A stretch of DNA of 56,822 nucleotides, from UHGV virus genome UHGV-0014949; one strand, 5' to 3'. Numbering within the stretch: position 1 is the stretch's first letter; each line of letters starts with the position of its first letter. Shown here piece by piece: positions 13,874-47,923 of this stretch. The notes beneath the pieces are model-generated. The model saw nothing but the letters and a program-made list of their open reading frames with translations. It was not told the DNA's origin and did no database searches. The DNA comes from a virus. The position numbers and the translations under genes are program-made.

Positions 13874-13882
13874 GTCTAGTTT

Positions 13883-32646: not shown

Positions 32647-32799
32647 ATGCAAATATTTCTAGTCGTGCTTATGGCACTGGCTGTAACTTCGTGCGTCATC
32701 ACAAAACTGGAACCGGTGGAGCTTTGTATTAGTTCACCACAGCAAACAAACAATGAGCTACAATGCCAAGACATAATACAAAATAAGAAACACCCCTAA
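32647..32799 (+). CDS. small lipoprotein (50 aa; lipobox VTSC), Cor/Llp-like superinfection-exclusion candidate
   Basis: MQIFLVVLMALAVTSCVITKLEPVELCISSPQQTNNELQCQDIIQNKKHP. AAGG ribosome-binding site 7 nt upstream. Located just downstream of the tail fibre genes. Confidence 0.4.
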   Translation: MQIFLVVLMALAVTSCVITKLEPVELCISSPQQTNNELQCQDIIQNKKHP

Positions 32800-32852
32800 C
32801 TTTCTGCTTATATTGGCAACCGCAACAGACACCTAATCTACATAGGTGTGCT
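32781..32852 (+). promoter_or_regulatory. conserved box (AATAAGAAACAC ... TTGGCAACCGCAACAGACA) plus 7-bp-stem hairpin, copy 1
   Basis: Box A 32782-32793, box B 32813-32831. Hairpin ACACCTA/TAGGTGT at 32829-32849 contains the SD. ATG at 32853. Confidence 0.45.
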
Positions 32853-33311
32853 ATGAATGGCTTAGAACAAGTCAATCAATTTTTAAGTGTGACTGGCAGC
32901 AAATTTGTACAACGTGTACATGAGCTACAGCAGCACCTTCAATCATTCCCGGAAGGCGATAAGGTTGATCCACCAGTAAATCATTATTTCGGCCATAAAA
33001 CCTATGTCCGGGAAATGCTTGCGCCGTCTGGGTCCATCATCGTAGGTAAAACTCATCGCTATAACCATACGTGCATTGTCTTACAGGGCAAGGCTTTAGT
33101 GTATTCAGAAAATGGATCTTTTGAGATCCAAGCGCCGTTTACCTTCTCTTGTGAAGCTGGTGCAAAGCGCCTATTTGTTGTGCTGGAAGATCTAGTATTT
33201 CAAACCGTTCACTACACTGAAAGCACAGATCTGGCCGTGATTGAGCAAGAAATTATCGTACCGGATGCAGAAATAAATCAATTTCGTAAAGATCTAAATT
33301 TAGAGGTGTAA
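32853..33311 (+). CDS. hypothetical protein (152 aa) expressed from a conserved box-hairpin element
   Basis: ORF track. Preceded by the conserved element 32781-32852. Confidence 0.5.
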   Translation: MNGLEQVNQFLSVTGSKFVQRVHELQQHLQSFPEGDKVDPPVNHYFGHKTYVREMLAPSGSIIVGKTHRYNHTCIVLQGKALVYSENGSFEIQAPFTFSCEAGAKRLFVVLEDLVFQTVHYTESTDLAVIEQEIIVPDAEINQFRKDLNLEV

Positions 33312-33313
33312 TT

Positions 33314-34102
33314 ATGTCCTGGGTAGCAGTAGGAGTGGGTGCAGTCAGCACCATCGGCGGCTTATTTGGCAGCAGTAGTGCCAAAAAAGCCCAGAAGGAA
33401 GCCAACAAAATTAATCGTGATACGCTCAACTTTAGAAAAGAGCAATACAACGATTATAAGAACAAGTACGGCGGCATTATTGATATGGTTATCAGTGATG
33501 CAGAGGAGGGCGTACAGGCTGATCTAGGTCGGGTGACAAGTGAAGCAGGTGCAGATACAGCAACAGCGTTTTCCAATGCAAAACAGGCTTTAGATAATCA
33601 AAACAACCGCATGGGGATTAATCCCAATAGTGGCCGGGCAGAATCAAGTGAACGTCAATTTGCATTAAATCAGGCCGTGGCGACAGCCGGAAACGTGACA
33701 AATGCACGCAACAAAGAACGCCAGTTCGCAGAAGATGCCACTTGGAACCGTCGTTACGGGGTATATCAACAAGGCAACTCTTTGATTAATGGTGCTGCAA
33801 ACAATGTCGGCAACTCTATGTCCAATCTGGCGGATTCATATAGCACCAGTGCAATAAATCAGAGCAACATGGCAAATCAGGCTATTGCTGGCGGCGTTTC
33901 ATCTATCACACAGGGTTTATTAGCAAACCCAAATGCGATCAAAAGCCTATGGGGTGGAGCGACTACTACAGTGCCGGTATCTAACATTGATTCAGCCACC
34001 AAGGGCATGAAGGTCAGTGGTACAGAAGTCGGAAGCGGTGTGATGTATGACAACATCGCCAGCGTTAGACCAAAAACAAACAACGGCTCATTTTTAGGAT
34101 AA
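33314..34102 (+). CDS. internal virion / ejection protein candidate (N-terminal TM, Gly/Ala/Asn/Ser-rich)
   Basis: MSWVAVGVGAVSTIGGLFG hydrophobic N-terminus. Low-complexity composition like podovirus ejection proteins. Precedes the SLT protein. Confidence 0.4.
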   Translation: MSWVAVGVGAVSTIGGLFGSSSAKKAQKEANKINRDTLNFRKEQYNDYKNKYGGIIDMVISDAEEGVQADLGRVTSEAGADTATAFSNAKQALDNQNNRMGINPNSGRAESSERQFALNQAVATAGNVTNARNKERQFAEDATWNRRYGVYQQGNSLINGAANNVGNSMSNLADSYSTSAINQSNMANQAIAGGVSSITQGLLANPNAIKSLWGGATTTVPVSNIDSATKGMKVSGTEVGSGVMYDNIASVRPKTNNGSFLG

Positions 34103-34111
34103 GGTGAAATT

Positions 34112-36304
34112 ATGTCTATTGATTGGGGCAATGTAGCAGCAGCAGCCGGTGTGGGTGCTGTCACCGGTTTAAATCAATTTAAAGCGGAAACCAAAGAGAA
34201 AGAGGAACGCGACTACACACGTGGTCGCCAAGCAGTACAGGACAAGCAACAGGCTGAATTACACGGCCAGACAATAAAGCAAAATGATTTCACCTTGCAG
34301 TCAAGCGCAAGAGAGCAAGCAGAAGCCAACCGCAAGCAGCTTTTGAGTGAACGCTTGGGTATGTACCAAAACTTCAAAACAACCGGTGATATTGACCGGG
34401 CAGCATCCACATACGTTGAATTTGCCAACAAGGACAACGTAGGTAATCCAAATTTTGATCCAAACCAAGCCTTGTCTTATGTAAAAAATGCAGATGGTAC
34501 AGTCAACATTAACATTGTGGACCGAAACACCGGTGCATTGGTACGAGCAGCCAGAGAGAACGTCAATATTGATGACTTTGTTTCAGCGACCTACCAGCAG
34601 CTTGAGCCAGTTAAAAACTATGAAACTGGCGTAGACAATGCTGCAAAATCTGCACTAAAGCAGCAGGAATATAGCTGGGAAGAACGCAAAATGGGATTGC
34701 AGTATGGTTTTGATCTAAATAAAGAAAACAATAAGCACAATAACACCATTAGTTTGGAAGGTTATAAGCATGGCAATACACTAAGCCTGGAAGGAATCAG
34801 GCAAGGTGGGGCCAACTATCGTGCTGAGTTAGGTCAAGAGGGCCAGAATTACCGGGCAACTTTGCCAGGAAAGGGAACAACCGGTACAGGATCAGGCAAG
34901 GCCAGCGCCGCCGTAGCATCTGGCGTACAGGGTGCAATCGGTTTTGCCCAGCAGAATGCACCAATGCTGAGTTTTTTAAGCAATCAACCGGATCTGTATA
35001 ACAAAACCGTTGCAATGATGGGGATTGAATCCGCAGGTAAGCCGAATGCAGTAAGCTATGATGGATCTAGTCATGGTCCAATGCAGATTAATGCCAAATA
35101 TGCCCAAGGCTTTGCAAGACAATTTAATATTACTGGAAACCCGGTTACAGATGTTCAAGCCAACATTCAAACCGGTGCAGCTTTAATTAATCACCTGGAT
35201 AAAAAATACGGTGGAGATACAACCTTGATTGCCGCTGCATATAACGCTGGGGAACCAGCCATTGATGCCGCAGTAGCACGCTGGCAAAACGCTGGGCAGC
35301 AAGGCACATGGTTCGACCATTTAAACCTAAACGATTCAGCGCGTCAGCAAGTGTACGGCCATATCGTAAAATACAACCAAGCTTTGGGTTATCTGGGTGC
35401 TGGTGGACAGCCGACCAATATCACCGTGGCTCAGGAAAACCAGAAAAATGCACAACAGACGGTCAATGCAAAGAATAACTATAGACAAGGTGTAAGCGCA
35501 CAGGCTACCGCAGCAATCAAAAATACAGCCACGGCAATGGGTACGGAGCTAGGATTAGACAAAGGAGCGAATGCGGCCATTGTGGGCGGTTTGGCTGGCA
35601 CACAAACAGAGATTGCTAAATTTGCCAGCAGCAACACTGAAAGAGAGCGCCGGGCAGCTTATGGGAATATTTACAAGTTGGTTGATACCGCCGTTCTATC
35701 TACAGAAGCCGGGCAAATGATGACACCAGCCCAGCGCAAGGAGTATGCACAACAGAAAACTTCTGAACTGGTCGGAGCTACCAACAAAACCGAAGCTGGA
35801 AATTGGATTTTACATGGCCGTAACGGGAAGAAGGCAGCCAAGCCAGCCGAACAAAGTAATCTAAATACGAAAGAAATTGATAACGTATTTCACGATATTA
35901 ACGTAGGTGAAAGTACGCCAGCAGCCAAACCAGCAGCTAAATCTGGTCAAGCTATGATTCCATTGCGAAACCCAATGCAAAGTGAAGCTGTCACAAAAGC
36001 TGCATCACGTTTTGAGCCACCAAAGACCCAAGCTAAAGCTGCACCAAAACCTGCGGCCAAGCCTAAGAGCAAAGCAGAGCAGAATGCAGAAGCCAGGGCA
36101 GCACGCAAACGAGCGCAAGTGGATGCAGTCAATGAGCGTATTAAGTCAGAACAGGCCGCCAAGCAAAAGGATAAGCCCAAAAAGCCGGAGGAATCTAAAA
36201 AATTAACGCCGTTATTTAAGCAAAGTACCGAGCCATTTTATGGAGGATCTGCCGTAGAAGCGGCCAGAGCTTTAAAGTTAAAGCAGTTGCAAAATAACAG
36301 CTAA
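34112..36304 (+). CDS. internal virion protein with lytic transglycosylase (SLT) domain
   Basis: GIESAGKPNAVSYDGSSHGPMQINAKYAQG ... IAAAYNAGE (nt about 35020-35260) matches the SLT catalytic E-S, Q-I and AYNAG motifs. Lys/Ala-rich C-terminus. Confidence 0.7.
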   Translation: MSIDWGNVAAAAGVGAVTGLNQFKAETKEKEERDYTRGRQAVQDKQQAELHGQTIKQNDFTLQSSAREQAEANRKQLLSERLGMYQNFKTTGDIDRAASTYVEFANKDNVGNPNFDPNQALSYVKNADGTVNINIVDRNTGALVRAARENVNIDDFVSATYQQLEPVKNYETGVDNAAKSALKQQEYSWEERKMGLQYGFDLNKENNKHNNTISLEGYKHGNTLSLEGIRQGGANYRAELGQEGQNYRATLPGKGTTGTGSGKASAAVASGVQGAIGFAQQNAPMLSFLSNQPDLYNKTVAMMGIESAGKPNAVSYDGSSHGPMQINAKYAQGFARQFNITGNPVTDVQANIQTGAALINHLDKKYGGDTTLIAAAYNAGEPAIDAAVARWQNAGQQGTWFDHLNLNDSARQQVYGHIVKYNQALGYLGAGGQPTNITVAQENQKNAQQTVNAKNNYRQGVSAQATAAIKNTATAMGTELGLDKGANAAIVGGLAGTQTEIAKFASSNTERERRAAYGNIYKLVDTAVLSTEAGQMMTPAQRKEYAQQKTSELVGATNKTEAGNWILHGRNGKKAAKPAEQSNLNTKEIDNVFHDINVGESTPAAKPAAKSGQAMIPLRNPMQSEAVTKAASRFEPPKTQAKAAPKPAAKPKSKAEQNAEARAARKRAQVDAVNERIKSEQAAKQKDKPKKPEESKKLTPLFKQSTEPFYGGSAVEAARALKLKQLQNNS

Positions 36305-36331
36305 AATTTAGCTTTTGAAATATACTCACGA

Positions 36332-36415
36332 AATAAGAAACACGTTTTAATTTTTTGCCGTTTTTTGGCAACCGCAACAGACAGTAAATCCGATTAACTA
36401 AGAGGTTTTACTGTG
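36332..36415 (+). promoter_or_regulatory. conserved box (AATAAGAAACAC ... TTGGCAACCGCAACAGACA) plus 7-bp-stem hairpin, copy 2
   Basis: Box A 36332-36343, box B 36365-36383. Hairpin CAGTAAA/TTTACTG at 36382-36413 encloses the AAGAGG SD and touches the GTG start at 36413. Confidence 0.45.
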
Positions 36416-39400
36416 AATATTAACCAGCACTTTAGCAATTTAGCAGCAAAGGCAGCAGCAGAAGGCGCAGATGCAAGTCAATTAATCAGTCAGCGTGAAC
36501 GTCTATTCAAAGACAAAGTGATTCCTGAATTAACCAAACGTGGTGCAAATGACACTGCAATTGTTCAGGCGCGTGAAAAATGGTACTCACAGACTGATAA
36601 AGTCATGCAGAGTGCTGGACTATTGCCGAAAGCTGGACAAAATAGCCGCAGCTTTGCCAAGGACAAACGTGCAGACAAGGCCGTTCAAGAAGCCGCAAAG
36701 ACTGGCAGTAAGTTACCGATCATCAAAGAAACCATTAAGTCTACTGGCGAAACTATCGGGAACCTATTTGGACAGGGCGTAGGCAGCACAATTGAAAGTG
36801 CCGCTGGCTTTGTGCGTGATATTGGCGAGAACGAACAGGATTCTATTTCAGCTAAAGTTGCTGATTACGGTAAAAACCTTAGAAAAGAATTTGAAGGTAG
36901 TGCGTCCAGCTTTCAAAAAGATCTGCAAGCTGGGGGAAGTGGTAAAGCAGCCCAATTAGCCACCGGTGCAATTCAATCCGTTCCAGCTATGGCAGCACCA
37001 TTTGGTGTGGCTAAGATTGTTTCTAAGGGTGCTGGCGCACTCAATGCCACCAAAGCAGCAGCCCCTTATCTGGGTATGGGTGCTGGTGTAGTCGCAGGGC
37101 ATACACAGAACTATGGTGAAGTACGCCGCAACGCAACAGAAAACCTTGAGCGTGATTTCCCAAGCTGGGAGAAACTGCAAGGCAATCCGCTATTTGAGCA
37201 AAATTTCCAAGAAAAATTAAACAGCGGTCTAGGCATTAATCAGGCACGCCAGCAAGCCCATGCAGCAACCTTAGACGCACTTTCAGAACAGGCAGCAAAT
37301 AAATACGGTTCAGCCATGACTGCAATCGACTTTATCGCGCCGTCCGGTGCAGTCCTGGGATCGGGGATTCTCAAAAACCAACCTACCAGCCAAATAGGTA
37401 AAAAGCTGGTCGGCGGCGGTGTAGATTCAGCTTTGGTTAAGCGTGAAATGCAACAGGTCCCACGCACCGGCATGGCTAAATTGGTTCCAGATGTAAGTCT
37501 TGCAGCCAACAAAGCAGCGGCCAAAATGGTGGGTAAACAGGCCCTAGAGGAAGGTTTACAGGGCGGTATTGGTGAGTATGGCGCTCAAGCTGCATCGGCC
37601 AATATTGGAGGTACACCGGTAGATTATGGCAAGGTCGGCCAGACTGTTCTTGAGGAAGGCTTAATTGGCGGTATCATGGGCGGCGGTATGCAGTCTGCTA
37701 CTGGCGGATCACCGACCAGCCAAGCCAAGGACGTGGCGAAGCAATTACGCAACCAGACCAACACATTACGCCAGGAGGAAGCCTCAGCACGTAAAGAGCT
37801 GGCAGATGCCATGCAGCTTAACGATCCGGCAGCACTCCAAAGCGCACAAGACAACCTGAATAATATTGGTGCAGAAGCCAGCAAGGTTAAAGCTACTTAT
37901 GATCAGTACGGTATTGATACGCCGTATTTTGTAGAGCGTTTTGCGGCACAGTATCAACCACCAAAACAACACGAACAGGAGCTGCCAGTAGTAGAACCGG
38001 AAGTACAACCGGAGGTGCAGCCAGAAGTACAACCACAACCAACAGAACAACCACAGGCCACGCCAATTAATCAGGGCATGGCAAATACCACAAATCTGGT
38101 GATGGATAGTGTGAGCAATGGATATATCACACCAGAAGAAGCGCAGGTAATCCAGACAGATCCTATTCGAGCTGATGTATTCACTCTAACAATGACCGGT
38201 GATGAAGCGGCAGCGCATAACGTGGTAATGAATGCTGTAACACTGGGGAACATTGATACAAATCAGGCACAAGAGCTGATTCAATCAATTACGCGCTATT
38301 CTCAAGCCAAAGCACCGAAAAAGCCTTCTGTTTCCAGCATTGTGAATAATCATGTTAAACAGCAGATCCATCCACAAGATAAAGGACTGTTTAGCAATCC
38401 AGTTGAATTAGATCCGAAAACCTTTGAACCGATTGATCCTAATCAGCCATCGCCGTTCCAGGAGGATTTTAACGAGCCTAAAGAGTTTTACAATGCAGCC
38501 AAAGCCAATGATTATGTGCGTATTAATGGTCTAACTGATTCACATGACATTGAGATTGCCGATGACGGCACACTTAAAGTTGTTAAAAAACAGGGCATCA
38601 TCCCAGATGATCCGAACCTAAGTAATTTTGGTTATGAACCTGAAAGAATCGTACAGCCAACCCCGGCAGATCCGAATTTATCAAATTTCTCAGAAGGTCT
38701 GGTCAGTGTTGACAGCTTAAATGCTGATAATGTGCCTGATATTATTGACCCAGAAGAAGTTCAGCAGCCAGTACAGCCGATCCCAACAGCGCAGCCAGAC
38801 CACAATAAACCTAAAACTTTCACAAATTATGTGAGAGCAAATGATTTCGTAAAAACAAACGGCCTAAAAGATAGCCATGAAATTATTAATAAGGGGGAAG
38901 GTCAGGTAATTGTTCAGCCTAAATCAGCAGCATCGATTGAGGATTTTGGAAGTGATCAGGCTTTCGATGACATGCTTAACGCCGTTCCACCTACTAGAAC
39001 ACCTGCAAAAAATCCAGTTGAGCCAGTACAGGCCGCAGATCCAGCAACGGACTTTGATAGTGATGAGGCATTTGACGAGTTATTAAATGCTGTGCCGCCA
39101 AGTGGTAAACAAACTGATCCAGCACAACCAACAGCCAGCTTTGCTGATCAGATTCGTGACGCTCACTTAAACAAGCCGAGTGACAAACCAAAACTGATCC
39201 AGGATGAAGTTGCTAAAGGCCGTCCACGTGCGGAAGTCTTAGCAGAAGTTTCAGACGTGGTTAAGGCAATCAGTACGACCACTACACCGGAGCTTAAAAC
39301 TGATACACCGGAGCTTGCACCGGAAGAAAAGCCACTTAGCTTTGAGGAAGAAAAAGAAAAACAAAAGCAAGAATATCTGCAAAAAGTCCGTGATGCTTAT

Positions 39401-42400
39401 GCCAAAGATCCGGCAAGCGTTAAACAGGTAATTGATAAAGAAGTACCTATTATCGGAAACTTTAAAGATAGATTGCTTAACATTGCCGAAGCAACGGGGA
39501 TTGTCGAGAATCTCAAAAAGCAAAACAAACAAGTTGATGAACAAAAAACAGGCGGAAATGGCATTCAGGAAATTGATTCACCGGAAGGTATGAAATCTGG
39601 CGATATTGGCCGAGGATCTGATGGAAAACCCTTTCTAAGCAAGAATGCCGCAAATCGAGGTCTAAAGCTTCGTGATGTGGAAAAAACACATGAAGTTTTT
39701 GAAATTTCGCCGTCTAATTTTGTACTTCGCGCCAAGGAAACAGTACCAGAAGTTGATAAGCCACAAGAATCTGATAATCCCTATCAAAAGTATGATGATT
39801 TAGCCAAACAGTACGGCAGATCTATTAAGTCGGATGGAACTATCGTAGCTCGTAACGGTCAAGATACCGCTTTTAAGATCCAAGAGAAAAATGGACGTTT
39901 ACACATTAAAGATGTTTTAGGAAATCTTGCATTCAGTGGTGCAACAACCCCAGAAAGCCTGAGTAACTTCCTAGAAGATTATTGGTATGACAAAAAACAG
40001 CAAAATAGCCAAAAGGATCAAACCGCTGGGGATAGTGCTGTATTGGAAACACCAGCACCACAGAAGATGAAAAAGGGAGATCTGGGCCGTAAGTCTGATA
40101 ACCAGCCTTTTGCCAGTGCAAGCGCTGCAAAAACCACGATTAAAAAGCAAGGGTTAGATAACTCACATGAAGTTATACAGCTTGCACCATCACAGTTTGT
40201 ATTGCGCCATAAGGATGCTGGCGAACCATTACACAAGGCACTAACGGAAAAATACGGCAATACTGATGTAGTTCGTGATGGTGATAAATTCACAATTAAG
40301 GGAGATCCAGAAGCAACGATTACCATTGAAGGTGACAAGGCTCAATTGTCTATGGATGGTGAAACCCTAAAAGGTGGATATGATGTAACCAATGCAGATA
40401 AAACTGTAGATTATTTTTCTGATTACATTCGATCAGGTAGAAGCCGGAATGCTTTAAAAGCATCACAAAAAATAGCAGAAGAAGCCAAAAAACTAAATGC
40501 GGCAAAACCAAAACCGGAGCCAGAAAACAAGCCTGACACTGGAATTAGCGTAGATGAATTGAAGCGTCTGCAAATGGAAGCAGAAGCACTAATCAACAAA
40601 TCTAAACAAGTTTCAGATCCATTAGAGTTCCCATTAGATAAGGTAAAAGAAGCATACGGCCATGCACATCTTTCACCTGGCAATACAGCAAGATCCTTTA
40701 AAGAATCATTTGATAAGTTTATTCAGGCTGAAATTGATGATGCTCAAGCACTGGCAACTACGGAAGCCCAGCAAACTGCACTTGATGAAGCTATAGACTG
40801 GGTGAAGGATAATTATATCAATGAAGCCTTACCGCCGTTATTAAATGCAGCCAGTGCAACAGTGAGTTCGGCGAGAGCTGGACGCAATAACTTCAATTCT
40901 AAGCAAGCTGATCAGCGTGGATCTGCTCTGGATAAAGCTACTGCCAAATTTGATGCAGAACTGGAACGATTGAAAGGCTATACAAAATTAAAAGTTTTGG
41001 CCGCCAGAACTCCAAAACAGAAACAGGCAGATGCAGAAGCCGAAGCCGAAGCCAAGGCCCAAGCGGCAAAAGATGCAGCAGCACAAGCCAAGGTCGAAGC
41101 CAAGACTAAAGCCGAGGAAGAAGCCAAAGCCAGTAAAAAGCGTGCAAGCAATCAGCATTTAGGTAGTCCAGAAGGCGCAGAGCAGATGACAGCCGCAGAA
41201 TGGCGTGCCAAGCACAAGGACGGAAAATCCGTTATTGATGGTGTGCGATATGTCATGAAGCTGGTGAATGGAGCAACCAGCCTTGTGCCTGTATGGATTA
41301 CAGACGAGAAGGGAACCACATCAAAAGCACCAGCAACAGAAACACCTAACGAAAGCAGCTATGAATCAATCAAGAAACATTTTGATGACACAGTAGAGCG
41401 TATGGATGATGGTGACGAAAGCTTAACACTGGATGAATTAAAAGCAGCTTACAAGGCTTTGATGGATAACCAGGAGAGTTTAGTTTCAGAGCTTTCTAGT
41501 CAAACCAAACAGCAGCTACTTGATAAGATGCACCCCTATTATGCGGCTATGTATAAATCCCACAAAAAGGATGAGCTTGTAAACAAGTGGGTATCTAACA
41601 CCTTTAGAGCTATGGATTTTGCCAGCGGTGGAGTGGTGACTATTTCTTATGGTGATAAACGCACCATGCCTGAAATTGTACGTGACAAAATTGAAGCTGC
41701 AACTCAAGAGGATCTGAACAAGTATTTAGAGGAACAGCGTCAGGCTAAGATCCAGAGAGAAAAGGATCTGGAAGCAGCAGAAGCCGGAATGAATGACCCT
41801 AAGACAATGGATGACTTTAAACGGATCTATGCAAATGGCGATTTCAAGGACTTTAAAGACTTTTACCGAAGCTTAACTATTCCGCAACAAGCATTGTATG
41901 ACGAGTTGAAGTCTGACGCATACAACGAGCAGCGGATGCAGGAAATCGAAAGAAATAAAGCCTATCGAGAAGCCAGCAACCCAAGTCACGCCGTTGAATC
42001 AACCACAGAAGCAACCTTATTTGCCGGGAAACATACCAAAAAAGGGACGGACATTTGGACCGTGGCCCTAAATGGTCGTGTGGATGGTGATGCGTTTAAT
42101 GATTATCGCAGTCAAGCTAAAGGTTTAGGCGGATATTATTCGAGCTACAAGGGCGGCGGTGCAGTACCTGGCTTTATTTTTGACAATGAAGCCACAGCCA
42201 ATGAGTTTCTAAACTTAGTCACTGGGGACCACGAAGCCAAGTCAACCGATCCAGAACCCGAAGCCATTGCAGTTGATCCACAGGCAGAAGTTGAGGTGAT
42301 TGAAACTGATGCAAAACGTCAGGCTGATAAATTGCGTGAAAAGGCTCAAGCCGTCATAGATCGTGGTGAGCAGAACATTAACCGTGACCGTAAAACCAAC

Positions 42401-45400
42401 ACAGCAAAACGTGCCGGTGATGCAGCTAGAGCAGAGGAACGGGCAAATAGTGCCATTTTCTTGGGTGAAACGCTTAATCGAATTGCAGACGGTATCGAAA
42501 ATGGATCGGTTAAATACTTATCCCGACTGGGGGCAATGACACAGTTAAGCCACCTGGAATCTCTTTTGCAGCGTGCATCTTATGACCAGCAACGAGAAAC
42601 CAATGCGAAAGAGCGTGAGATTACCGCAACCACAATTGCTTATGCAGAGTTCCCACAATATAAGACCTGGACTGACAGCTTTAATAATATCCGTAGCGAT
42701 TTAAAGGCAGCTAATCCACGTCTGGCCGAAAAACTGGAAAAAACAATCGGTATCCGCTACCACAATGCTTATACACGTTGGTTGAATGAAACGAATGAAT
42801 TTGGCACCGAAAATTATGTAGGGCAATTAGCACGCAAGTCTGACGGCTCACCAGCAGTATTTAAGACCAATATTAAACAGGCTGAAACACTGGTCAAGGC
42901 AAGTAACAAGAGAGCTGGAAAGGACAGTTTTGAGGTATTCAAGATTAAAAATGGTGAATACGCCGTTATTTCATCTTATGAAACCGCAATGGAAAATGGA
43001 TCTTGGAAGCCGACCAATTCAGACAAGCAAATGACCTTGACGAATGAATTTGGGAGTGAGCTTTACAATGCCTTGAAGCAATACAAGCGCAAAAATCCAA
43101 GCTATTACATGAACTGGCTAATTGAATCTATGCACGATTCTGTTTCACGCATGGAGAAACTAGGTATTCATGACCCTGCAACATTCCGGGCCGCAATGCG
43201 TGAATATTTGAGCCTGAGAAGTAAAGAAAAGGCCAATGACCCAATCAAGGAAATGGAACGCTCTATGATTGGCCGCAGCAATGACGGCTTAGACTTTTTC
43301 CCAACCCCTAGAAATGTCGTTGAACAGATGATTGAAATGGCGGATCTGGATAGTGATATGAAGGTTTTAGAGCCTTCTGCCGGTATGGGGCATATTGCAG
43401 ATGTATTAAAGGACCACGGCATTAAACCGGATGTGATTGAGCTATCAGGCAAACGTCAAGATCTATTAAAGCTAAAAGGTTATAGCGTTGTTGGTAATGA
43501 CTTCTTAATGTTTGATCCAAAAAACAGAGCGCCGAACTATGGGGACGTGTTTAAAACCGCTGATGGAAAGTACCAGGGCGTTATGCGTGGATCAGGTAGC
43601 CTTGGAAGCAATCGAGTACGTCTAATGCGTGAAGATGACGGCCAGATGATCACTTACTTTGACCGTGATGAGCTTGAGCTGGTCAAAATGAATGGCGTTA
43701 ATTATGACCGTATCATTATGAACCCTCCATTTAGTGATAGACGTGATGCAGCCCATATTTATCATGCTTTTGATTTACTGGCTGATGATGGTGTGATGGT
43801 CGCAATTGCCGGTGAAGGTGTATTTTTTGGCAAAGATAAAGCAGCTAAAGAATTTCAGGACTGGTTAGATCAAGTTGGTGCGGAAATCACGCCGTTGGAT
43901 GCTGGAACCTTTAACGACCCTAGTTTGCCAGTGACTACAGGCGTTAAGGCTAGAATCATCAAAATCAACAAGGCAGACAGCAGCGGTAAACGATTTAGTC
44001 GTAGTGAAGATCTAAATCAAGTACCAGCGCACGTGAAAGAAAACACCAGTGGTTCAACCCCGGATCAGATCCGCACAGAGCTTGTAAACCGATTTGGTGA
44101 GGATACTATTCAGCAACTTGAGCAAAAAGGCATTTTAAGCATTGTGCCTACTCATACTGAGCAGGGGGTGGAAGGCTTTGCGGAAAATGGTCGGGTAACA
44201 CTTGTTGCGGATGCAATCACAGCAGAGAACATCGTACCAGTGTTCTTACATGAACTTGGCGGCCACATTGGGATGCAGGGTGTGCTTAAAGCCAGTGCGT
44301 ACGATAATTTAATGTCAGAATTTAATCGTCTGGTGAAGTCTGGAAACCCAGATGCAATTGAAGCCAAACGATTAGCAGAGCGTGAGTCTGATGCACAAGT
44401 ACAGTCTGATGAATATTTACCGTACTTAATCACCATAACCGCAAGGAATCAGCAAAACCAAGGACCAGCACAGAGGCTTATAAACCGCGTTTTAAGTGCG
44501 GTTAAGGCGTGGGCGGTAGATAGACTAGGATTAAACCTAAAACTTAGCCCTAGCGATATGGTGGCCCTTGCTGAACGAATGGTTAAGACTGTTTCTAAAG
44601 GAACACCACCAACGCCACCAAAAGGCGGCAAAAAAGCGCCGTCAGTGAATAAGCATGTTGATAGGTCTAACCAGACTGAAACAGCAGCATTTAAGTCATG
44701 GTTTAATGGCAGCAAGGTTGTTGATTCAAATGGCAGCCCTTTAATCATGTACCACGGCACACCAAAATCATTCAATCAATTCAATACGAATGAGTCTGGT
44801 GCTTTACTTGGTAAGGGAAGCTACTTCACAGCAGCTTTATCCGAAGCAAGCGCATACGCTGATAGTAAGTCGCCTATGCAAACCTATCTATCAATCCAAA
44901 ATCCATACTATGTTAATTCTGTCATGGATCAGGTCCCAAGTCGAAAGGAGCTTAAAGACTTGGGCCATGATGGTGTAATCCTTTTAAATGAAGATAAAAC
45001 CGTTAAATGGGCAGTAGCGCATGAGCCGACACAAATTAAGTCAGCAACAGCGAATAGCGGCACATTTGATTCATCCCATCCAGATATTCGCTACAGTCGC
45101 AGCAGTACAGCCAATCCGCAGAACATGAGTCGAACCAAGCAGCGCGAGTTTCTGGACAAAGCAGCAGCAACCGCTTTTGGTCAAATGTCTTTACGTGGTG
45201 CAGAAGCTTCAAAAACCCTAAGCAATAGAACGCTTAATCTATTCCAAACCATGCTACATAAGGCTTTGAAGGATGAAACAGGAGAATTTAAAAAGACCTT
45301 CGATCTAGTCCAGGGCAAGATTAATCACGTTACTTTTGCAAGTTCAAAATCAATGGACGTTGCGCCTAACGTACTGATTCAGTTAGAGGAAGGTAGTGAC

Positions 45401-47923
45401 TACTGGAAGGAAGTTAAGCGAGTGGGCCGGACGATGGGCAACACCTTATCCGGAGGAAGAATCGACAAGGCCAAAGTAGATAAAGACTTAAAGAAAATTG
45501 GCGATTTAATGTTTGAAAATACATTGCTCGACAACTCAGAACGTCACACGGCAAAAGAATTAAAGCAACTAGGCTTTGATGATGAGCAAATCAGCTTGTA
45601 CAACGAAGTACGTGAAGCTATCGACACATCACTTGATACCTTTGCCAACACCACATTTAGTAATATTTATAAGCATCTGGGTGGAACCACCGAGGAAGTG
45701 TTGGAGCTGGCCGGGAAAGACCTAGACATTGTGGACCATTACAATGAGATTCTTAAACGTATTGACGCATTGACCAAGGGCAAGCCGGAAAAGGCAGATG
45801 CTCGACAGGCGGCCATTGAAGCCATTGACCGAGTATTTAAGAAGGCGAACGACCTAAAAGATCAAGGTTACGTTCCGCTTATGCGTTTTGGTAAATATTT
45901 CGTGAGGATCTACAACCCAACCACAGGCGAAGTTGCTTATCGTCAGCACTTTGAAAGTGAATCTGAGCGTAATCTATTTTACAGAAATTATAACAAGGCC
46001 AATATTCCAGCCGGTTACGAGATCGAACAAGGCCAGATCAATGAACTACAGCACAAATTATTCCAAGGTGTAAGTCCTGAAACGGTGGCCTTATTCGCTA
46101 AGGAATCAGGTTTACCAATCGGTGATGCTGAAACGGCTTATATCAAATACGCCGTACAGAATAACCATGCACTTAAACGCTTATTGAAACGCCAAGGTAT
46201 TGACGGCTTTGATAGTGATTTAAAGCGCGTTTTAGCATCGTTTGTTATGTCGAATGCACGTTATTCAGCAAACCAAACCTACAACCCGGCAATTGATGAA
46301 TCAATCGCAGATATTAACGATCCGGCATACCAGGAGGATGCTATCCGGTTGCGTGACTATTCGCTTGATACTCAAGAGGAACTAGCCGCCGTCAAAAACT
46401 TTGCGTTTGTCTGGTATATGGGGTTCTCAGCCATGTTTGGACTGGTGAACTTAACACAGCCACTATTACAGACATTCCCTTATTTAATGCAGTACAGCAA
46501 GGATCATGGAACCATCCTAAAAGCATTTGGCAAAGCTGTTACCACCTGGCGTAAAGGCACAAACGTAATGGACCAGAAGTACAAGGCCCACTATGAGCGT
46601 GCAAGAAAAGAAGGCCACTTGGACCCACAAAACACATGGATGATGCAAGGTTTAGAGCGTGGTAAATCTGGCCTTGGTGCAAGTACCTGGCAATTGGTCA
46701 GCCATGCGTCTGGTTTATTTGCTCAAGCATCTGAAACCGTCAACCGCCGTACTTCATTGTTTGCAGCCTTGGATGTGGCCGAAAGCATGGGGCAAGCCAA
46801 ACTAGAGAAACTAGGCTTTAAAGATGCGTATGATTTCGCCGTCAGAACAATCCAAGAAACCCAAGGTATTTACAACAAAGGTAACAGACCGCGAGTATCC
46901 AGAGGTAATGTCGGTTCCATGCTGATGATGTATAAGCAATTCATGATTGCCTATATCGAACAAATGGTTCGTATGCAGAAATCTGGCTTATACGGCGGTG
47001 ATGATGACGAGTTTAAAAAGAAAATGGCCGGTCTGGTCGGTTTTGGTGTATCCAGATCCGTTTTAACTATGCTGGGAATCTTAATGGCCTTTTCTGGTAC
47101 GTCTGGCTTGCCATTTGTACGCGATATTCTGGACGGTATTGAAACTGCCGGTGGATTGGTCGGAAAGCCTGTTAATACCGAGCGTGAGATTCAAATCGCC
47201 TTGCATGATGCACTTGGGCAGACGATGGGTAGCGCAGTAAATACGGCTCTAATGGATGGTATTGTTAACTTAAATCCATTGATTGACGTTAAGGGCCGTA
47301 TGGGTATGGGTGACTTAATCCCGGCGACTGCATATTTCAGCCCAACCACAAGTGACTATATGAAATCTTCTGAAATTTCACAGATAGCTGGTCCAATTGG
47401 CGGCCTACTTGAAAAAGTGAAGGAATCAGTCGCACTGGCTCAGGTCGGTGCGTATGGGCAATCTGGCGTGCAATTATTGCCGAAAGCGATTACAAGCGTG
47501 GGGCAAGGTGCTATTGCTGCAACGACTGGTGATTATCGCAATATGAAAACTGGCGTTAAGACGAATGATGCCACGGTGCTAGACGGCATAGTTAAGATGC
47601 TTGATGCACAACCAGCCGGTATTGCAAAAGAGGGTCGTGTAAGAGGCTTAGAGATGAAAGACAAATCTTCTCAGATCTACTTAAACAAACGCTGGAAAGA
47701 ACGCTATGAAGCTGCTTTGGAATCTGGGGACCGCACTCAAGTCCGCGACATTAAGCAGCAGATCCGCGACTACAACAAGGAGAATCCACGTTATCCAATC
47801 AAATTTAATCAAAAACTGGCTGAAACGAATTTCAACAAGTCTAACCAGACCTGGCAAGAAAAGCGTAAAACAGTGAAAGGACTAGAGTGGATGAGTGAAT
47901 ACAACCCATATTTAGACCAGTAA
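36413..47923 (+). CDS. giant polyvalent virion protein (3836 aa): amino-MTase + HExxH zincin + PARP-like ART + repeats
   Basis: MTase motif I VLEPSAGMGHI (about 43366-43398) and motif IV IIMNPPFSD (43720-43731). HELGGH at 44249-44266. IMYHGT ... GALLGKGSYFT ... ILLNED (44744-44990) parallels the PARP HGS ... GKGIYFA ... YNE signature. AEAK low-complexity stretch. GTG start with AAGAGG ribosome-binding site. Confidence 0.8.
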   Translation: MNINQHFSNLAAKAAAEGADASQLISQRERLFKDKVIPELTKRGANDTAIVQAREKWYSQTDKVMQSAGLLPKAGQNSRSFAKDKRADKAVQEAAKTGSKLPIIKETIKSTGETIGNLFGQGVGSTIESAAGFVRDIGENEQDSISAKVADYGKNLRKEFEGSASSFQKDLQAGGSGKAAQLATGAIQSVPAMAAPFGVAKIVSKGAGALNATKAAAPYLGMGAGVVAGHTQNYGEVRRNATENLERDFPSWEKLQGNPLFEQNFQEKLNSGLGINQARQQAHAATLDALSEQAANKYGSAMTAIDFIAPSGAVLGSGILKNQPTSQIGKKLVGGGVDSALVKREMQQVPRTGMAKLVPDVSLAANKAAAKMVGKQALEEGLQGGIGEYGAQAASANIGGTPVDYGKVGQTVLEEGLIGGIMGGGMQSATGGSPTSQAKDVAKQLRNQTNTLRQEEASARKELADAMQLNDPAALQSAQDNLNNIGAEASKVKATYDQYGIDTPYFVERFAAQYQPPKQHEQELPVVEPEVQPEVQPEVQPQPTEQPQATPINQGMANTTNLVMDSVSNGYITPEEAQVIQTDPIRADVFTLTMTGDEAAAHNVVMNAVTLGNIDTNQAQELIQSITRYSQAKAPKKPSVSSIVNNHVKQQIHPQDKGLFSNPVELDPKTFEPIDPNQPSPFQEDFNEPKEFYNAAKANDYVRINGLTDSHDIEIADDGTLKVVKKQGIIPDDPNLSNFGYEPERIVQPTPADPNLSNFSEGLVSVDSLNADNVPDIIDPEEVQQPVQPIPTAQPDHNKPKTFTNYVRANDFVKTNGLKDSHEIINKGEGQVIVQPKSAASIEDFGSDQAFDDMLNAVPPTRTPAKNPVEPVQAADPATDFDSDEAFDELLNAVPPSGKQTDPAQPTASFADQIRDAHLNKPSDKPKLIQDEVAKGRPRAEVLAEVSDVVKAISTTTTPELKTDTPELAPEEKPLSFEEEKEKQKQEYLQKVRDAYAKDPASVKQVIDKEVPIIGNFKDRLLNIAEATGIVENLKKQNKQVDEQKTGGNGIQEIDSPEGMKSGDIGRGSDGKPFLSKNAANRGLKLRDVEKTHEVFEISPSNFVLRAKETVPEVDKPQESDNPYQKYDDLAKQYGRSIKSDGTIVARNGQDTAFKIQEKNGRLHIKDVLGNLAFSGATTPESLSNFLEDYWYDKKQQNSQKDQTAGDSAVLETPAPQKMKKGDLGRKSDNQPFASASAAKTTIKKQGLDNSHEVIQLAPSQFVLRHKDAGEPLHKALTEKYGNTDVVRDGDKFTIKGDPEATITIEGDKAQLSMDGETLKGGYDVTNADKTVDYFSDYIRSGRSRNALKASQKIAEEAKKLNAAKPKPEPENKPDTGISVDELKRLQMEAEALINKSKQVSDPLEFPLDKVKEAYGHAHLSPGNTARSFKESFDKFIQAEIDDAQALATTEAQQTALDEAIDWVKDNYINEALPPLLNAASATVSSARAGRNNFNSKQADQRGSALDKATAKFDAELERLKGYTKLKVLAARTPKQKQADAEAEAEAKAQAAKDAAAQAKVEAKTKAEEEAKASKKRASNQHLGSPEGAEQMTAAEWRAKHKDGKSVIDGVRYVMKLVNGATSLVPVWITDEKGTTSKAPATETPNESSYESIKKHFDDTVERMDDGDESLTLDELKAAYKALMDNQESLVSELSSQTKQQLLDKMHPYYAAMYKSHKKDELVNKWVSNTFRAMDFASGGVVTISYGDKRTMPEIVRDKIEAATQEDLNKYLEEQRQAKIQREKDLEAAEAGMNDPKTMDDFKRIYANGDFKDFKDFYRSLTIPQQALYDELKSDAYNEQRMQEIERNKAYREASNPSHAVESTTEATLFAGKHTKKGTDIWTVALNGRVDGDAFNDYRSQAKGLGGYYSSYKGGGAVPGFIFDNEATANEFLNLVTGDHEAKSTDPEPEAIAVDPQAEVEVIETDAKRQADKLREKAQAVIDRGEQNINRDRKTNTAKRAGDAARAEERANSAIFLGETLNRIADGIENGSVKYLSRLGAMTQLSHLESLLQRASYDQQRETNAKEREITATTIAYAEFPQYKTWTDSFNNIRSDLKAANPRLAEKLEKTIGIRYHNAYTRWLNETNEFGTENYVGQLARKSDGSPAVFKTNIKQAETLVKASNKRAGKDSFEVFKIKNGEYAVISSYETAMENGSWKPTNSDKQMTLTNEFGSELYNALKQYKRKNPSYYMNWLIESMHDSVSRMEKLGIHDPATFRAAMREYLSLRSKEKANDPIKEMERSMIGRSNDGLDFFPTPRNVVEQMIEMADLDSDMKVLEPSAGMGHIADVLKDHGIKPDVIELSGKRQDLLKLKGYSVVGNDFLMFDPKNRAPNYGDVFKTADGKYQGVMRGSGSLGSNRVRLMREDDGQMITYFDRDELELVKMNGVNYDRIIMNPPFSDRRDAAHIYHAFDLLADDGVMVAIAGEGVFFGKDKAAKEFQDWLDQVGAEITPLDAGTFNDPSLPVTTGVKARIIKINKADSSGKRFSRSEDLNQVPAHVKENTSGSTPDQIRTELVNRFGEDTIQQLEQKGILSIVPTHTEQGVEGFAENGRVTLVADAITAENIVPVFLHELGGHIGMQGVLKASAYDNLMSEFNRLVKSGNPDAIEAKRLAERESDAQVQSDEYLPYLITITARNQQNQGPAQRLINRVLSAVKAWAVDRLGLNLKLSPSDMVALAERMVKTVSKGTPPTPPKGGKKAPSVNKHVDRSNQTETAAFKSWFNGSKVVDSNGSPLIMYHGTPKSFNQFNTNESGALLGKGSYFTAALSEASAYADSKSPMQTYLSIQNPYYVNSVMDQVPSRKELKDLGHDGVILLNEDKTVKWAVAHEPTQIKSATANSGTFDSSHPDIRYSRSSTANPQNMSRTKQREFLDKAAATAFGQMSLRGAEASKTLSNRTLNLFQTMLHKALKDETGEFKKTFDLVQGKINHVTFASSKSMDVAPNVLIQLEEGSDYWKEVKRVGRTMGNTLSGGRIDKAKVDKDLKKIGDLMFENTLLDNSERHTAKELKQLGFDDEQISLYNEVREAIDTSLDTFANTTFSNIYKHLGGTTEEVLELAGKDLDIVDHYNEILKRIDALTKGKPEKADARQAAIEAIDRVFKKANDLKDQGYVPLMRFGKYFVRIYNPTTGEVAYRQHFESESERNLFYRNYNKANIPAGYEIEQGQINELQHKLFQGVSPETVALFAKESGLPIGDAETAYIKYAVQNNHALKRLLKRQGIDGFDSDLKRVLASFVMSNARYSANQTYNPAIDESIADINDPAYQEDAIRLRDYSLDTQEELAAVKNFAFVWYMGFSAMFGLVNLTQPLLQTFPYLMQYSKDHGTILKAFGKAVTTWRKGTNVMDQKYKAHYERARKEGHLDPQNTWMMQGLERGKSGLGASTWQLVSHASGLFAQASETVNRRTSLFAALDVAESMGQAKLEKLGFKDAYDFAVRTIQETQGIYNKGNRPRVSRGNVGSMLMMYKQFMIAYIEQMVRMQKSGLYGGDDDEFKKKMAGLVGFGVSRSVLTMLGILMAFSGTSGLPFVRDILDGIETAGGLVGKPVNTEREIQIALHDALGQTMGSAVNTALMDGIVNLNPLIDVKGRMGMGDLIPATAYFSPTTSDYMKSSEISQIAGPIGGLLEKVKESVALAQVGAYGQSGVQLLPKAITSVGQGAIAATTGDYRNMKTGVKTNDATVLDGIVKMLDAQPAGIAKEGRVRGLEMKDKSSQIYLNKRWKERYEAALESGDRTQVRDIKQQIRDYNKENPRYPIKFNQKLAETNFNKSNQTWQEKRKTVKGLEWMSEYNPYLDQ

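Follow-up and report, generated by a model that had tools for sequence, protein, structure and literature searches.

The window, by which we mean the whole stretch of 56,822 nt that was analysed, is an Acinetobacter phage-plasmid. Two leaders in its virion region carry the same short sequence, and they head genes for ejected internal virion proteins, namely gp13-like, gp14-like and gp15-like proteins and a giant polyvalent protein. Ejected proteins of this set are potentially toxic, among them a lytic transglycosylase and the giant protein, which bears an ADP-ribosyltransferase. The 19-mer TTGGCAACCGCAACAGACA occurs in exactly two copies, at 32813-32831 and 36365-36383 (plus strand), before the gp13-like gene (copy 1, c1) and before the gene for the 3836-aa giant protein (copy 2, c2), and with up to 3 mismatches allowed these remain the only two matches (0.01 expected). 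The two identical boxes that the initial annotation placed ahead of gene 32853 and of giant gene 36413 are both found there, each followed by the hairpin it described. The features of the two leaders, and of a terminator upstream of them that we call T_terS, are as follows.

13881-13926, plus strand: T_terS, predicted intrinsic terminator between the endolysin gene (stop 13873) and terS (ATG 13949); conserved, and co-varying with the box in relatives
32759-32777, plus strand: candidate -10 hexamers of copy 1, TACAAT (32759-64) and CATAAT (32772-77), both within the 3' end of a 50-aa lipoprotein ORF
32782-32793, plus strand: 12-mer AATAAGAAACAC, copy 1, the last codons of that 50-aa ORF (32647-32799); not conserved as an element
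32805-32818, plus strand: hairpin 1, copy 1; TGCT, loop TATATT, GGCA, with one G.U pair
32819-32831, plus strand: box copy 1, ACCGCAACAGACA; predicted unpaired, 13 bp possible with T_terS
32829-32855, plus strand: hairpin 2, copy 1; ACACCTA (32829-35) and TAGGTGT (32843-49) around a 7-nt loop, the 3' arm being the Shine-Dalgarno sequence (SD, AGGTG), with ATG at 32853
36299-36317, plus strand: weak terminator-like palindrome AGCTAAAATTTAGCT, then TTTG, spanning the stop codon of the gp15-like gene (36302-04)
36321-36326, plus strand: candidate -10 hexamer TATACT in the giant-gene leader; a good -35 is absent
36332-36343, plus strand: 12-mer, copy 2, beginning about 6 nt past the -10 hexamer and reading as AAN triplets; not kept in relatives
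36355-36371, plus strand: hairpin 1, copy 2; TTGCC, loop GTTTTTT, GGCAA
36371-36385, plus strand: box copy 2, ACCGCAACAGACAGT; 15 bp possible with T_terS, one G.U included
36381-36415, plus strand: hairpin 2, copy 2 (ACAGTAAA / TTTACTGT); 18-nt loop holding the SD AAGAGG, GTG start at 36413-15

The search of other genomes that had been proposed earlier finds the core GCA(N)CCGCAAC-RRR-CA retained by relatives at both virion-gene sites. The box is conserved at the nucleotide level while the neighbouring proteins fall to 35-57% identity, and the core CAACAAACAG is common to several clades. The initial annotation had described two conserved blocks 19-21 nt apart, and the 12-mer does occur without mismatch at 32782 and 36332, spaced 19 and 21 nt from the 19-mer, but it lies outside the conserved element: it is coding in c1, and at c2 it is missing even in a 95%-identical A. 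lwoffii relative. Copy 2 of the 12-mer has its start some 6 nt beyond the -10 hexamer and so is probably at the 5' end of a transcript.

Transcription and folding of the leaders

The box had been suggested to be a middle or late promoter specific to the phage, or a site of RNA processing, which we now consider very improbable, although an identical 19-mer does head two virion transcription units, and the giant gene, which in relatives lies beyond bidirectional terminators and antisense morons, for that reason needs a promoter of its own nearby. Against this, Pfam, PHROGs and PDB sequence searches of the 57-kb genome, the 3836-aa protein included, turned up no gene for a phage RNA polymerase or sigma factor, and the box has only 2 sense copies in 57 kb, none of them before terS, capsid or tail genes. 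A promoter of T7- or N4-type phage polymerases was rejected on the same two grounds. The geometry of the box fits neither sigma factor: TTGGCA is spaced just 14-15 bp, not 16-18, from TAATCT/TAAATC, and these are poor hexamers, while for a sigma54 promoter GG-N10-GC (TGGCAC-N5-TTGCW) the GC in TTGGCAACCGCAACA follows the GG by 5 nt, not 10. A promoter scan of 32780-32850 and 36330-36415 returned no promoter-like site. The RfaH ops and lambda boxA consensus sequences, GGCGGTAGNNTG or CGCTCTTTA, are absent from 32780-32855 and 36330-36415.

The earlier statement that neither copy has a sigma70 -35/-10 or fits sigma54 therefore stands for the box itself, but -10-like hexamers lie about 45-60 nt upstream of the boxes, and at c2 their position is conserved in relatives (9 of the 11 copies have TATACT, TATAAT, CATACT or TAAAAT between -48 and -55 relative to CCGCAAC), so that a conserved hexamer sits some 50 nt before the box instead of within it. 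Five c1 copies have TACAAT or TATAGT at -60 to -62, weak evidence because the sequence there is coding. The palindrome AGCTAAAATTTAGCT before the c2 hexamer recurs in contig L002 with its stem conserved and its loop different.

The small hairpin before the box also argues against a promoter. Its pairing is preserved across at least 7 different stems by compensatory substitutions (at c2 in relatives, TGCTA/TAGCA, TGCTC/GAGCA, TGCCA/TGGCA and GCTA/TAGC), and the box is for this reason probably transcribed. The predicted fold of both leaders runs from hairpin 1 through an unpaired box to hairpin 2 (z -1.7 for c1, -3.3 for c2), and according to these models the box is probably an exposed segment of a folded mRNA leader ahead of the DNA-ejection genes.

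The perfect 7-bp stem after each box, with loops of 7 and 18 nt, is confirmed at its coordinates. That each stem holds the SD and ends at the start codon is true of c1, but in c2, where the stem is (A)CAGTAAA (36381-88) / TTTACTG(T) (36407-14), the loop holds the SD (36400-05), of which just the GG is paired, to an inner CC, and the first two start-codon bases fall under the 3' arm. The two stems are not compensatory versions of one, as had been argued, but two different hairpins; true compensation, a change from U-A to C-G in the c2 hairpin, is seen among orthologues only. Folding and comparative data do back the proposal that a hairpin occluding the ribosome-binding site (RBS) is coupled to the box and gates translation. 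In the longer leaders of L016, L048 and L050 the box is itself the 5' strand of a long predicted helix with the SD on the 3' strand (z -3.3 to -5.3). A riboregulator target should overlap an inhibitory structure over the RBS, and in the predicted folds, those of the window's own leaders as well as these, the box segment does. This cis SD strand resembles the seed of T_terS: GUGUUUGUUGAGG in c2 of L048 is close to CUGUUUGUUGCGG (from the clade-1 T_terS, not that of L048), and a second near-copy is GUUCGUCUGCGAG against GUUCGCUGCGGGU.

A complementary segment in the terminator before terS

T_terS lies on the same strand as the boxes, 19-22 kb upstream of them. It consists of a 5' arm GACCG (13883-87), an inner hairpin (13889-13900), an unpaired seed ATTAACTGTTTGTTG (13901-15), a 3' arm CGGTC (13916-20) and a T-run (13921-26). 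Judged by its sequence, it would be an intrinsic terminator in all three clades of relatives, with a G+C-rich stem and a U-run (GACCG...CGGTC with T6 in the window, ACCCG/CGGGT with T7 in clade 2, GGCTCA/TGAGCC with T6 in clade 3). The segment complementary to the box, ACTGTTTGTTGCGGT (13905-13919), is in the loop and the 3' arm. The window offers 13 and 15 bp of complementarity, and the remaining clade-1 sets 11-15 bp, against the 10 nt or more expected of a trans-encoded riboregulator and its target. Across 8 clade-1 genome sets the possible helix is contiguous, with 13 bp at c1 and 14-15 bp at c2 (0-2 G.U pairs); the exceptions are c1 of L050, with 11 bp, and a one-base-shorter A. baumannii c2 that pairs only with a bulge. 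When leader and T_terS are cofolded, hairpin 2 disappears and the predicted ddG is -13 and -15 kcal/mol. At c1 the pairing invades only 3 nt of hairpin 2. Complementarity extends 4-5 nt into the 3' arm in all three clades despite their different stems, so the box mimics the 5' arm of T_terS. An Rfam search with cmscan (E <=10) over the boxes, T_terS and the clade-3 box unit returned noise only.

Within one genome this complementarity is statistically unexceptional: 17 plus-strand sites form helices of at least 13 nt with T_terS when G.U is allowed, and the c2 duplex ranks by energy only in about the top 0.1%. Helices with T_terS of 13-16 nt with G.U occur by chance elsewhere in the genome, which would suit leaders that are ordinary cis elements, in which an RBS-occluding hairpin accompanies a single-stranded standby site, no trans partner exists, and the match to T_terS reflects an old inverted duplication and low-complexity sequence of the CAACAAACAG type. 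RBS hairpins are common, and that core recurs in several clades. We nevertheless find this improbable, as it leaves unexplained the joint flank changes of box and terminator in three clades, the successful clade-3 prediction described below, and the nucleotide conservation of the box beside proteins of 35-57% identity.

The boxes might also be short-repeat joints at which recombination exchanges or deletes the cassette of ejection genes. L057 and L064 join c1-type upstream to c2-type downstream sequence, and the gap before c2 is a hot spot of inserted genes, but contigs of the L057 type may be assembly chimeras, the repeats measure just 13-19 bp, every long contig keeps the architecture unchanged, and neither the hairpins nor the terminator partner would be accounted for. 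We regard this as extremely improbable.

Shared changes in box and terminator

Box and terminator change together within clade 1: the base that follows CCGCAAC is A at both sites in the window, L205, L193 and L196, and G at both in L187 and L198. In L050, c2 (CAACAGGTAGT) and the antisense of its own terminator (CAACAAATAGT) have together changed a C-G to a U-A pair. In clade 2, L213 has the box ACTCGCAGCGAAC, and L230, another contig from that sample, has a terminator whose antisense reads ACCCGCAGCGAAC. For clade 3, the box CTCACARCAARCAGAT was predicted from the terminator loop alone and then found, in sense orientation and once per contig; 8 clade-3 contigs carry both box and terminator, and in L329 the predicted box is about 80 nt upstream of a gp14-like gene whose product is 35% identical to that of the window. 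The 5' flank of the box tracks the 5' arm of the terminator by clade (AACCG vs GACCG, ACUCG vs ACCCG, CCUCA vs GCUCA). Complementarity is thus kept by correlated substitutions within clade 1 and across the three clades, with one mismatch per clade-3 genome, and the independent lineages are few, comprising the three clades and a few events within clade 1. The mismatch (A.C or A.A) is to an invariant box and is present in every clade-3 terminator variant, so that the argument from G.U tolerance, at 8 to 2, is not clean. For a further 'GGGC' clade (L026, L028, L029, L190), a AGCUGUUUGUUGCCC-like seed would be predicted in the terminator upstream of terS.

Concerted change at all sites of a genome would also be expected if the three sites were double-stranded DNA sites for one co-evolving, sequence-specific phage protein, such as a late regulator or a roadblock, with RNA complementarity a by-product of one inverted site; the A.C differences in clade 3, where pairing is not conserved, are in line with this. 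Yet the shared 13-21 bp are asymmetric and lack dyad symmetry, the boxes stand some 35-50 nt past the putative -10 rather than at activator positions, and the inverted copy is always within the loop and 3' arm of a sense-strand terminator. Moreover, the flanking RNA hairpins carry compensatory changes, the cis SD strand mimics the T_terS seed, and a search of the genome for a candidate regulator identified none. This, too, is improbable, to the same degree as leaders acting in cis only.

A possible RNA-RNA switch for virion genes

The match between box and terminator, together with their co-evolution, suggests an undescribed RNA-RNA switch for virion genes. Our preferred reading, to which we give slightly less than an even chance, is anti-antisense activation, in which the box is bound by late RNA that carries T_terS and the ribosome site thereby becomes free. 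The leader would comprise a -10-like element, about 20 nt, hairpin 1, the box, and hairpin 2 with the RBS. RNA carrying T_terS would arise only during transcription of the late operon; by pairing with the box it would strip away the 5' strand of hairpin 2, and the loss of that strand would expose the SD and the start codon. In the Psychrobacter-like clade, the same pairing would instead weaken a leader attenuator. What the analysis establishes is the complementarity, its co-variation in three clades, one prediction borne out in clade 3, the hairpins, and the likeness of the cis SD strand to the T_terS seed; that both RNAs coexist, that they pair and that the effect is activating is inferred.

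The same pairing could act in reverse, with box RNA, supplied in trans or, in clade 3, as a short sRNA, sequestering the seed and 3' arm of T_terS on nascent late transcripts so that polymerase reads into terS and the virion genes. The 4-5 nt reach into the 3' arm, in all three clades and with differing stems, would suit this, as would the clade-3 box unit, which resembles an sRNA gene in having TGnTATACT as an extended -10, followed by a 5' hairpin, a seed left single-stranded and a hairpin with a U-run. In several clade-3 genomes another terminator directly precedes T_terS, because of which T_terS RNA may be scarce there, and positive feedback is possible since the read-through transcripts bear two more boxes. 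However, a trans RNA would have to bind within a fraction of a second, after the seed has been transcribed and before the 3' arm is, hairpin 2 of clade 1 has no U-run, and sequestration of the box in cis by the SD strand (L016, L048, L050) suits a target more than a regulator; we judge the reversed direction unlikely. A combination of the two is also unlikely: T_terS would both stop transcription and provide a loop that acts as a trans RNA to unlock the ejection-gene leaders, that of the giant polyvalent toxin-like protein included, and because the pairing enters the 3' arm of T_terS itself, the effect could run both ways, with the terminator opened by leader RNA and the leaders by terminator RNA.

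Activation of this anti-antisense kind is known from DsrA and RprA, base-pairing RNAs that activate translation of rpoS. CpxQ and SdhX are enterobacterial sRNAs derived from 3' UTRs or terminators, with seeds 5' of the terminator stem; in them, as here, the regulator shares the intrinsic terminator of an mRNA and the seed is beside or within that hairpin, but here the seed is the large internal or hairpin loop of the terminator itself, running into the 3' arm. The lambda nut (boxA + boxB) and HK022 put sites occur in two copies per phage genome (nutL/nutR, putL/putR), and like RfaH ops they place a short conserved leader element and an adjacent hairpin before long operons; the hairpins described here differ between the two copies, and we know of no nut, put or ops system with a complementary partner inside a terminator. 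The c4 RNA of P1/P7 and the CA RNA of N15 are antisense RNAs like that of P4 (P1 and N15 being phage-plasmids), and all three, CI, c4 and CA, arise by processing of the leader of the operon under their control, causing premature termination, in immunity or antirepressor control.

In the immunity system of satellite phage P4, the CI RNA (seqB) pairs with seqA and seqC, and prophage Gifsy-1 encodes IsrK, a terminator-defined, prophage-borne base-pairing regulator (PMC4825925). With P4 CI, c4 and CA the present system has in common that a single short sequence complements two distinct sites in transcripts of the same element; it differs in that its partners lie on either side of the virion module and activation is predicted, and the P4 CI and P1 c4 families showed no sequence or Rfam relationship to it (cmscan E <=10). 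As in DsrA/RprA-rpoS and IsrK, an upstream leader segment sequesters the RBS strand, and a second RNA resembling that strand binds the segment and releases the ribosome site; with IsrK it further shares a terminator-defined regulator and a prophage-borne element. Unlike DsrA and IsrK, the regulator proposed here is neither a dedicated sRNA gene nor an isoform of the target: a terminator inside an mRNA, at the lysis/terS junction, would supply it from its loop and 3' arm. Its targets would be two, both within the same array of late genes and 19-22 kb distant; the present case is argued from sequence.

Late control in temperate phages is usually credited to proteins, namely Q-type antiterminators, activators and sigma factors. 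If true, the pairing would add a new regulatory layer, in which two conserved RNA segments that co-evolve connect the beginning of the packaging module with the ejection operon, and it would apply to a widespread, so far uncultured family of phage-plasmids of Acinetobacter and Psychrobacter, including clinical A. baumannii plasmids of 55-56 kb. It would explain how potentially toxic ejected proteins are silenced in the plasmid state, and the sequence rule that the box matches the loop of the terS terminator could locate the same circuit elsewhere. Were the interaction reciprocal, Moraxellaceae phage-plasmids with protein identities down to about 35% would share a late switch that reinforces itself and works without a protein.

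Genomic setting of the ejection genes

The window is a temperate, podovirus-like phage-plasmid of Acinetobacter, complete or nearly so. Isolated phages gave zero matches in DNA and protein searches, and it therefore has no annotated relative among them; the nearest relatives are contigs of about 55-58 kb and circular plasmids, all of them absent from the isolated-phage collection. They include an A. lwoffii contig (of the approximately 57-kb class in A. lwoffii assemblies) with 95% amino-acid identity to the window, and A. baumannii pTG31302 with four similar plasmids (55-56 kb, circular, non-mobilizable). The Rep3, ParA and recombinase genes adjoin a full virion module, in which a T7-style set of ejected proteins follows the late array. 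Accessory products include a SutA RNA-polymerase-binding domain protein, a dCMP/cytidine deaminase, a Tad2-like (anti-Thoeris) domain protein and a C5 cytosine methyltransferase.

Features of the window
4476-4793, 4771-5235, 11042-11920 and 52762-54210: accessory genes
13873: stop of the endolysin gene
13881-13926, plus strand: T_terS, an intrinsic terminator
13949: start of terS, first gene of the late array
14577: terL
16522: portal gene
19896: major capsid gene
25714: tail gene
32647-32799: 50-aa ORF with lipoprotein signal LAVTSC
32853: 152-aa gene in the gp13 position
33314: gp14-like gene
34112: gp15-like gene with SLT domain
36305-36412: gap between the gp15-like and giant genes
36413-47923: giant polyvalent ejected protein, 3836 aa, ART-PolyVal at residues 2771-2885
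49750-50412, minus strand: ParA
50621-51202, minus strand: small tyrosine recombinase, 193 aa
55022-56281: Rep3-family initiator

The repeated leader element

The initial annotation described two leader copies, c1 before the gene in the gp13 position and c2 before the giant gene, each with a 12-mer and a 19-mer block followed by a hairpin. The 19-mer, TTGGCAACCGCAACAGACA, lies at 32813-32831 and 36365-36383 on the plus strand, and these are its only matches in the window at up to three mismatches, against 0.01 expected. The 12-mer, AATAAGAAACAC, is indeed exact at 32782 and 36332, and with two mismatches allowed it is found 9 times against 8.7 expected, which is not above chance. We rejected it as part of the element because it is not conserved, the c2 copy being missing even in the 95%-identical relative, and because it is coding in c1, where it forms the last codons of the 50-aa ORF. 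This ORF, which could encode a spanin-like or exclusion lipoprotein, is kept in many relatives and absent from the A. baumannii and A. ursingii types. The 12-mer (32782-32793 and 36332-36343) is confined to this genome and reads as the AAN triplets AAU-AAG-AAA, which would stand at the extreme 5' end of both leaders if transcription begins after the -10-like hexamers described below. Other c2 copies have AAN runs at the same place, for example AAU-AAC-AAG in L006, and the 12-mer may be an Hfq distal-face (ARN)n motif.

The hairpin after each 19-mer (hairpin 2) is present in both copies as first described. The Shine-Dalgarno (SD) sequence was said to lie within each stem, and this holds for c1, where the 3' arm contains AGGTG, and fails for c2, where AAGAGG sits in the loop and the 3' arm masks the initial GT of the GTG start codon.

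The CCGCAAC-type segment within the leader, here called the box, precedes virion genes elsewhere too: every Acinetobacter relative examined has c1 and c2 in the same two places, including relatives whose gp14-like protein is only about 57% identical. The invariant core of both copies is GCA(A/G/-)CCGCAAC-RRR-CA. Distant clades have one box, not two, and a repeat search for an analogous two-copy motif in the distant loci gave nothing convincing; the loose pattern AGCACCGCAACGRNCA returned mostly chance matches in viral contigs. The sequence CCGCAACGAGC resembles 16S rRNA around position 1100, and we set aside mimicry of 16S rRNA because the resemblance is too short.

Directly 5' of the core lies a small hairpin (hairpin 1), whose 3' arm is the start of the 19-mer. 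Its pairing is kept in the stems TTGCC/GGCAA, TGCTA/TAGCA, TGCTC/GAGCA, TGCCA/TGGCA, GCTA/TAGC, GACCG/TGGTC, GGCAG/TTGCC and GCCC/GGGC, with loops of 3-7 nt, and the variable loop length and G.U pairs point to a single-stranded hairpin and against a protein dyad. Of the 11 c2 copies examined, 9 have a -10-like hexamer (TATACT, TATAAT, CATACT or TAAAAT) at a distance of 48-55 nt on the upstream side of CCGCAAC, and the distant clade 3 has an extended -10, TGnTATACT. The evidence is weaker for c1, with TACAAT at -61 within coding sequence. The giant gene of several relatives stands behind a bidirectional terminator and antisense insertions, and it therefore needs a promoter close by. Hairpin 1, the hexamers and this need put the box roughly at leader positions +35 to +50 and do not put it in a promoter. 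The earlier interpretation of the box as a phage promoter is unlikely, and searches of the window turned up no gene for an RNA polymerase or sigma factor. The giant protein was considered as an N4-like virion RNA polymerase and rejected, since it has only the ART-PolyVal domain and PHROG matches to methyltransferase-like or unknown-function families, and no match in the PDB. Its counterparts in relatives range from about 2100 to 4356 aa and carry other cargo domains (MuF_C, InPase, helicase and LPD families).

The gap before the giant gene is an insertion hot spot in relatives (L044 12673-13779; L048 12898-17390; L050 12589-13056; L188 10736-11464), and the box remains with the giant gene whatever the insert. 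One insert holds a PDZ-domain protein and an opposite-strand 103-aa ORF behind a bidirectional terminator; another, similar to P22 immI, is a 4.7-kb block of Adhesin_E, Arc-like and ANT/pRha antirepressor-like genes. In two short contigs, L057 (IMGVR_UViG_3300005066_000250) and L064, upstream sequence of the c1 type, made up of the last part of the small lipoprotein ORF plus a GCAG-type box, runs directly into the c2-type hairpin and a giant gene that halts 15 codons from its start. The junction is either a deletion of gp13-15 through recombination between boxes or an assembly chimera.

Complementarity and co-variation with the terS terminator

Matches of the CCGCAAC type occur in the window at c1, c2 and an inverted site at 13905-13919, and nowhere else. 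The inverted site is the unpaired loop segment (the seed) and 3' arm of T_terS, which lies between the endolysin stop and the terS start and is laid out as GACCG, an inner hairpin, UUAACUGUUUGUUG, CGGUC and U6. As RNAs of the same strand, T_terS could form 13 bp with c1 and 15 bp with c2. The comparative evidence carries the weight, since within the window alone this complementarity is not significant: 17 plus-strand sites give helices of at least 13 nt with T_terS (G.U allowed), duplex energy ranks c2 no higher than roughly the top 0.1%, and genome-wide RNAduplex and helix scans, in which U/G-rich queries pair promiscuously, did not single out the boxes as best targets. In several clade-3 genomes, L234, L235 and L240, a second canonical intrinsic terminator (about 60 nt upstream of T_terS, with a gap of only about 10 nt) stands in tandem with T_terS before terS. 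One fold showed a possible interaction between the seed and the terS SD, which is not conserved in L193-type sequences and was dropped.

For clade 1, which includes the window, we compared eight genome sets, matching each T_terS with its own boxes. The c1 helix has 13 bp in seven of the eight and 11 bp in L050, and the six c2 helices without a gap measure 14-15 bp, G.U pairs numbering 0-2 in all; in the A. baumannii type, c2 lacks one base and needs a bulge to pair. The base after CCGCAAC changes alike in box and terminator (A in the window, L205, L193 and L196; G in L187 and L198), and the L050/L223 genome has CAACAGGTAGT at c2 with CAACAAATAGT as its terminator antisense, a C-G to U-A change. 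In clade 2 (sample 3300009419) the box ACTCGCAGCGAAC in L213 and the terminator antisense ACCCGCAGCGAAC in L230, separate contigs assumed to be a single genome, form 13 bp with one G.U.

Clade 3 consists of Psychrobacter-like contigs of about 55 kb with 36-42% identity in terS. Its box was predicted from the terminator loop only, UAUCUG[C/U]UUG[U/C]UGUGAG giving sense-strand CTCACARCAARCAGAT, and a scan of the collection bore this out in 8 contigs with two opposite-strand matches, terminator and box. The L329 box has a gp14-like gene (35% identity, E 7e-30) about 80 nt downstream of it and a gp15-like gene after that. Across the three clades the 5' flank of the box tracks the terminator stem (AACCG versus GACCG; ACUCG versus ACCCG; CCUCA versus GCUCA). 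Eight box/terminator differences are compatible with pairing and two are incompatible, among few independent lineages; the two arise because each terminator variant of clade 3 fails to pair with the invariant box at one position, either A.C or A.A.

The same pairing could also work with roles reversed, the box RNA preventing T_terS from forming and so causing read-through into terS. This main rival gains from the conserved reach of the box complementarity into the 3' arm of the terminator and from the sRNA-like character of the clade-3 box unit, and we nevertheless consider it unlikely.

Further box variants (L026, L028, L029, L190, about 10 short metagenome loci, and L008 at 6400-6515 and 9570-9670) follow the same plan: a tract rich in T, then a small hairpin (GCCC/GGGC or GTGCC/GGTAC), then an A/C-rich segment (GGGCAACAAACAGCTAACTAAATACC or ACCGAAACAAG). 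The GGGC clade has no second box copy, and its giant gene directly adjoins the gene before it. A search for the T_terS partner of the GGGC-type and L008 boxes, over retrieved loci that do not include their terS terminators, matched only the boxes themselves. The pairing model predicts the reverse complement of each genome's own box in the terminator upstream of terS: AGCTGTTTGTTGCCC for the box GGGCAACAAACAGCT, and CTTGTTTCGGT in the L008 terminator for the L008 c1 box.

Leader folding and a candidate riboregulatory switch

The window leaders are predicted to fold as hairpin 1, an unpaired box (unpaired probability about 0.9) and hairpin 2, with z of -1.7 for c1 and -3.3 for c2. In cofolds with T_terS RNA the energy gain is -13 and -15 kcal/mol, and hairpin 2 no longer forms. 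Among orthologues, c2 hairpin 2 has one compensatory pair (U-A to C-G), 87.5% of cells pair, and its covariation score of 0.197, versus 0.155 in shuffles, is reached in 3 of 500 shuffles. In longer leaders (L016, c1 and c2 of L048, and c1 of L050) the box is predicted to be the 5' strand of a long helix with the SD on the 3' strand (z -3.3 to -5.3), and this SD strand is nearly a copy of the T_terS seed: GUGUUUGUUGAGG in L048 c2 versus CUGUUUGUUGCGG in the clade-1 T_terS, which is not L048's own terminator, and GUUCGUCUGCGAG in L016 versus GUUCGCUGCGGGU. Because the box pairs with the SD strand and that strand mimics the seed, the box looks, in these models, like an anti-SD strand and T_terS like its better-matched decoy. 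In clade 3 a U-run follows the hairpin after the box, which looks like an attenuator, and pairing with T_terS would open this hairpin at the base of its stem.

Box and terminator would also be linked if a DNA-binding protein co-evolved with all three sites. Tolerance of G.U pairs would favor RNA over DNA recognition, an argument weakened by the clade-3 A.C mismatches. Such a protein leaves unexplained the embedding of one site in a terminator, the RNA hairpins and the SD-strand mimicry, and we regard it as improbable.

We tentatively propose, at somewhat less than even confidence, that T_terS RNA activates the ejection-gene leaders by pairing with the box. Late transcription through the lysis genes would yield an RNA bearing T_terS, whose loop would pair with the box in the c1 and c2 leaders and displace the strand masking the ribosome site, or in clade 3 weaken the attenuator, so that ejected proteins would be produced only while the late operon is active. 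The analysis establishes the complementarity, the co-variation, the predicted structures and the promoter-like hexamers, and we infer that the RNAs coexist and pair, and also the sign of the effect.

An anti-antisense design is known from rpoS and DsrA. It is also found in the prophage RNA IsrK (PMC4825925), and these two activators are among the closest known systems to the proposed switch. P4 CI RNA (seqA and seqC), P1 c4 and N15 CA RNA are similar in being antisense circuits with one regulator and two targets, but their place is in immunity regions, they work through termination, and they have no sequence in common with the box or T_terS. The boxes, T_terS and the clade-3 unit all lack a match in Rfam, and literature searches found Acinetobacter phage-plasmids and nothing on this element. 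If the proposal is true, the terminator heading the packaging module would also serve to riboregulate the ejection genes throughout a large and unstudied family of phage-plasmids.
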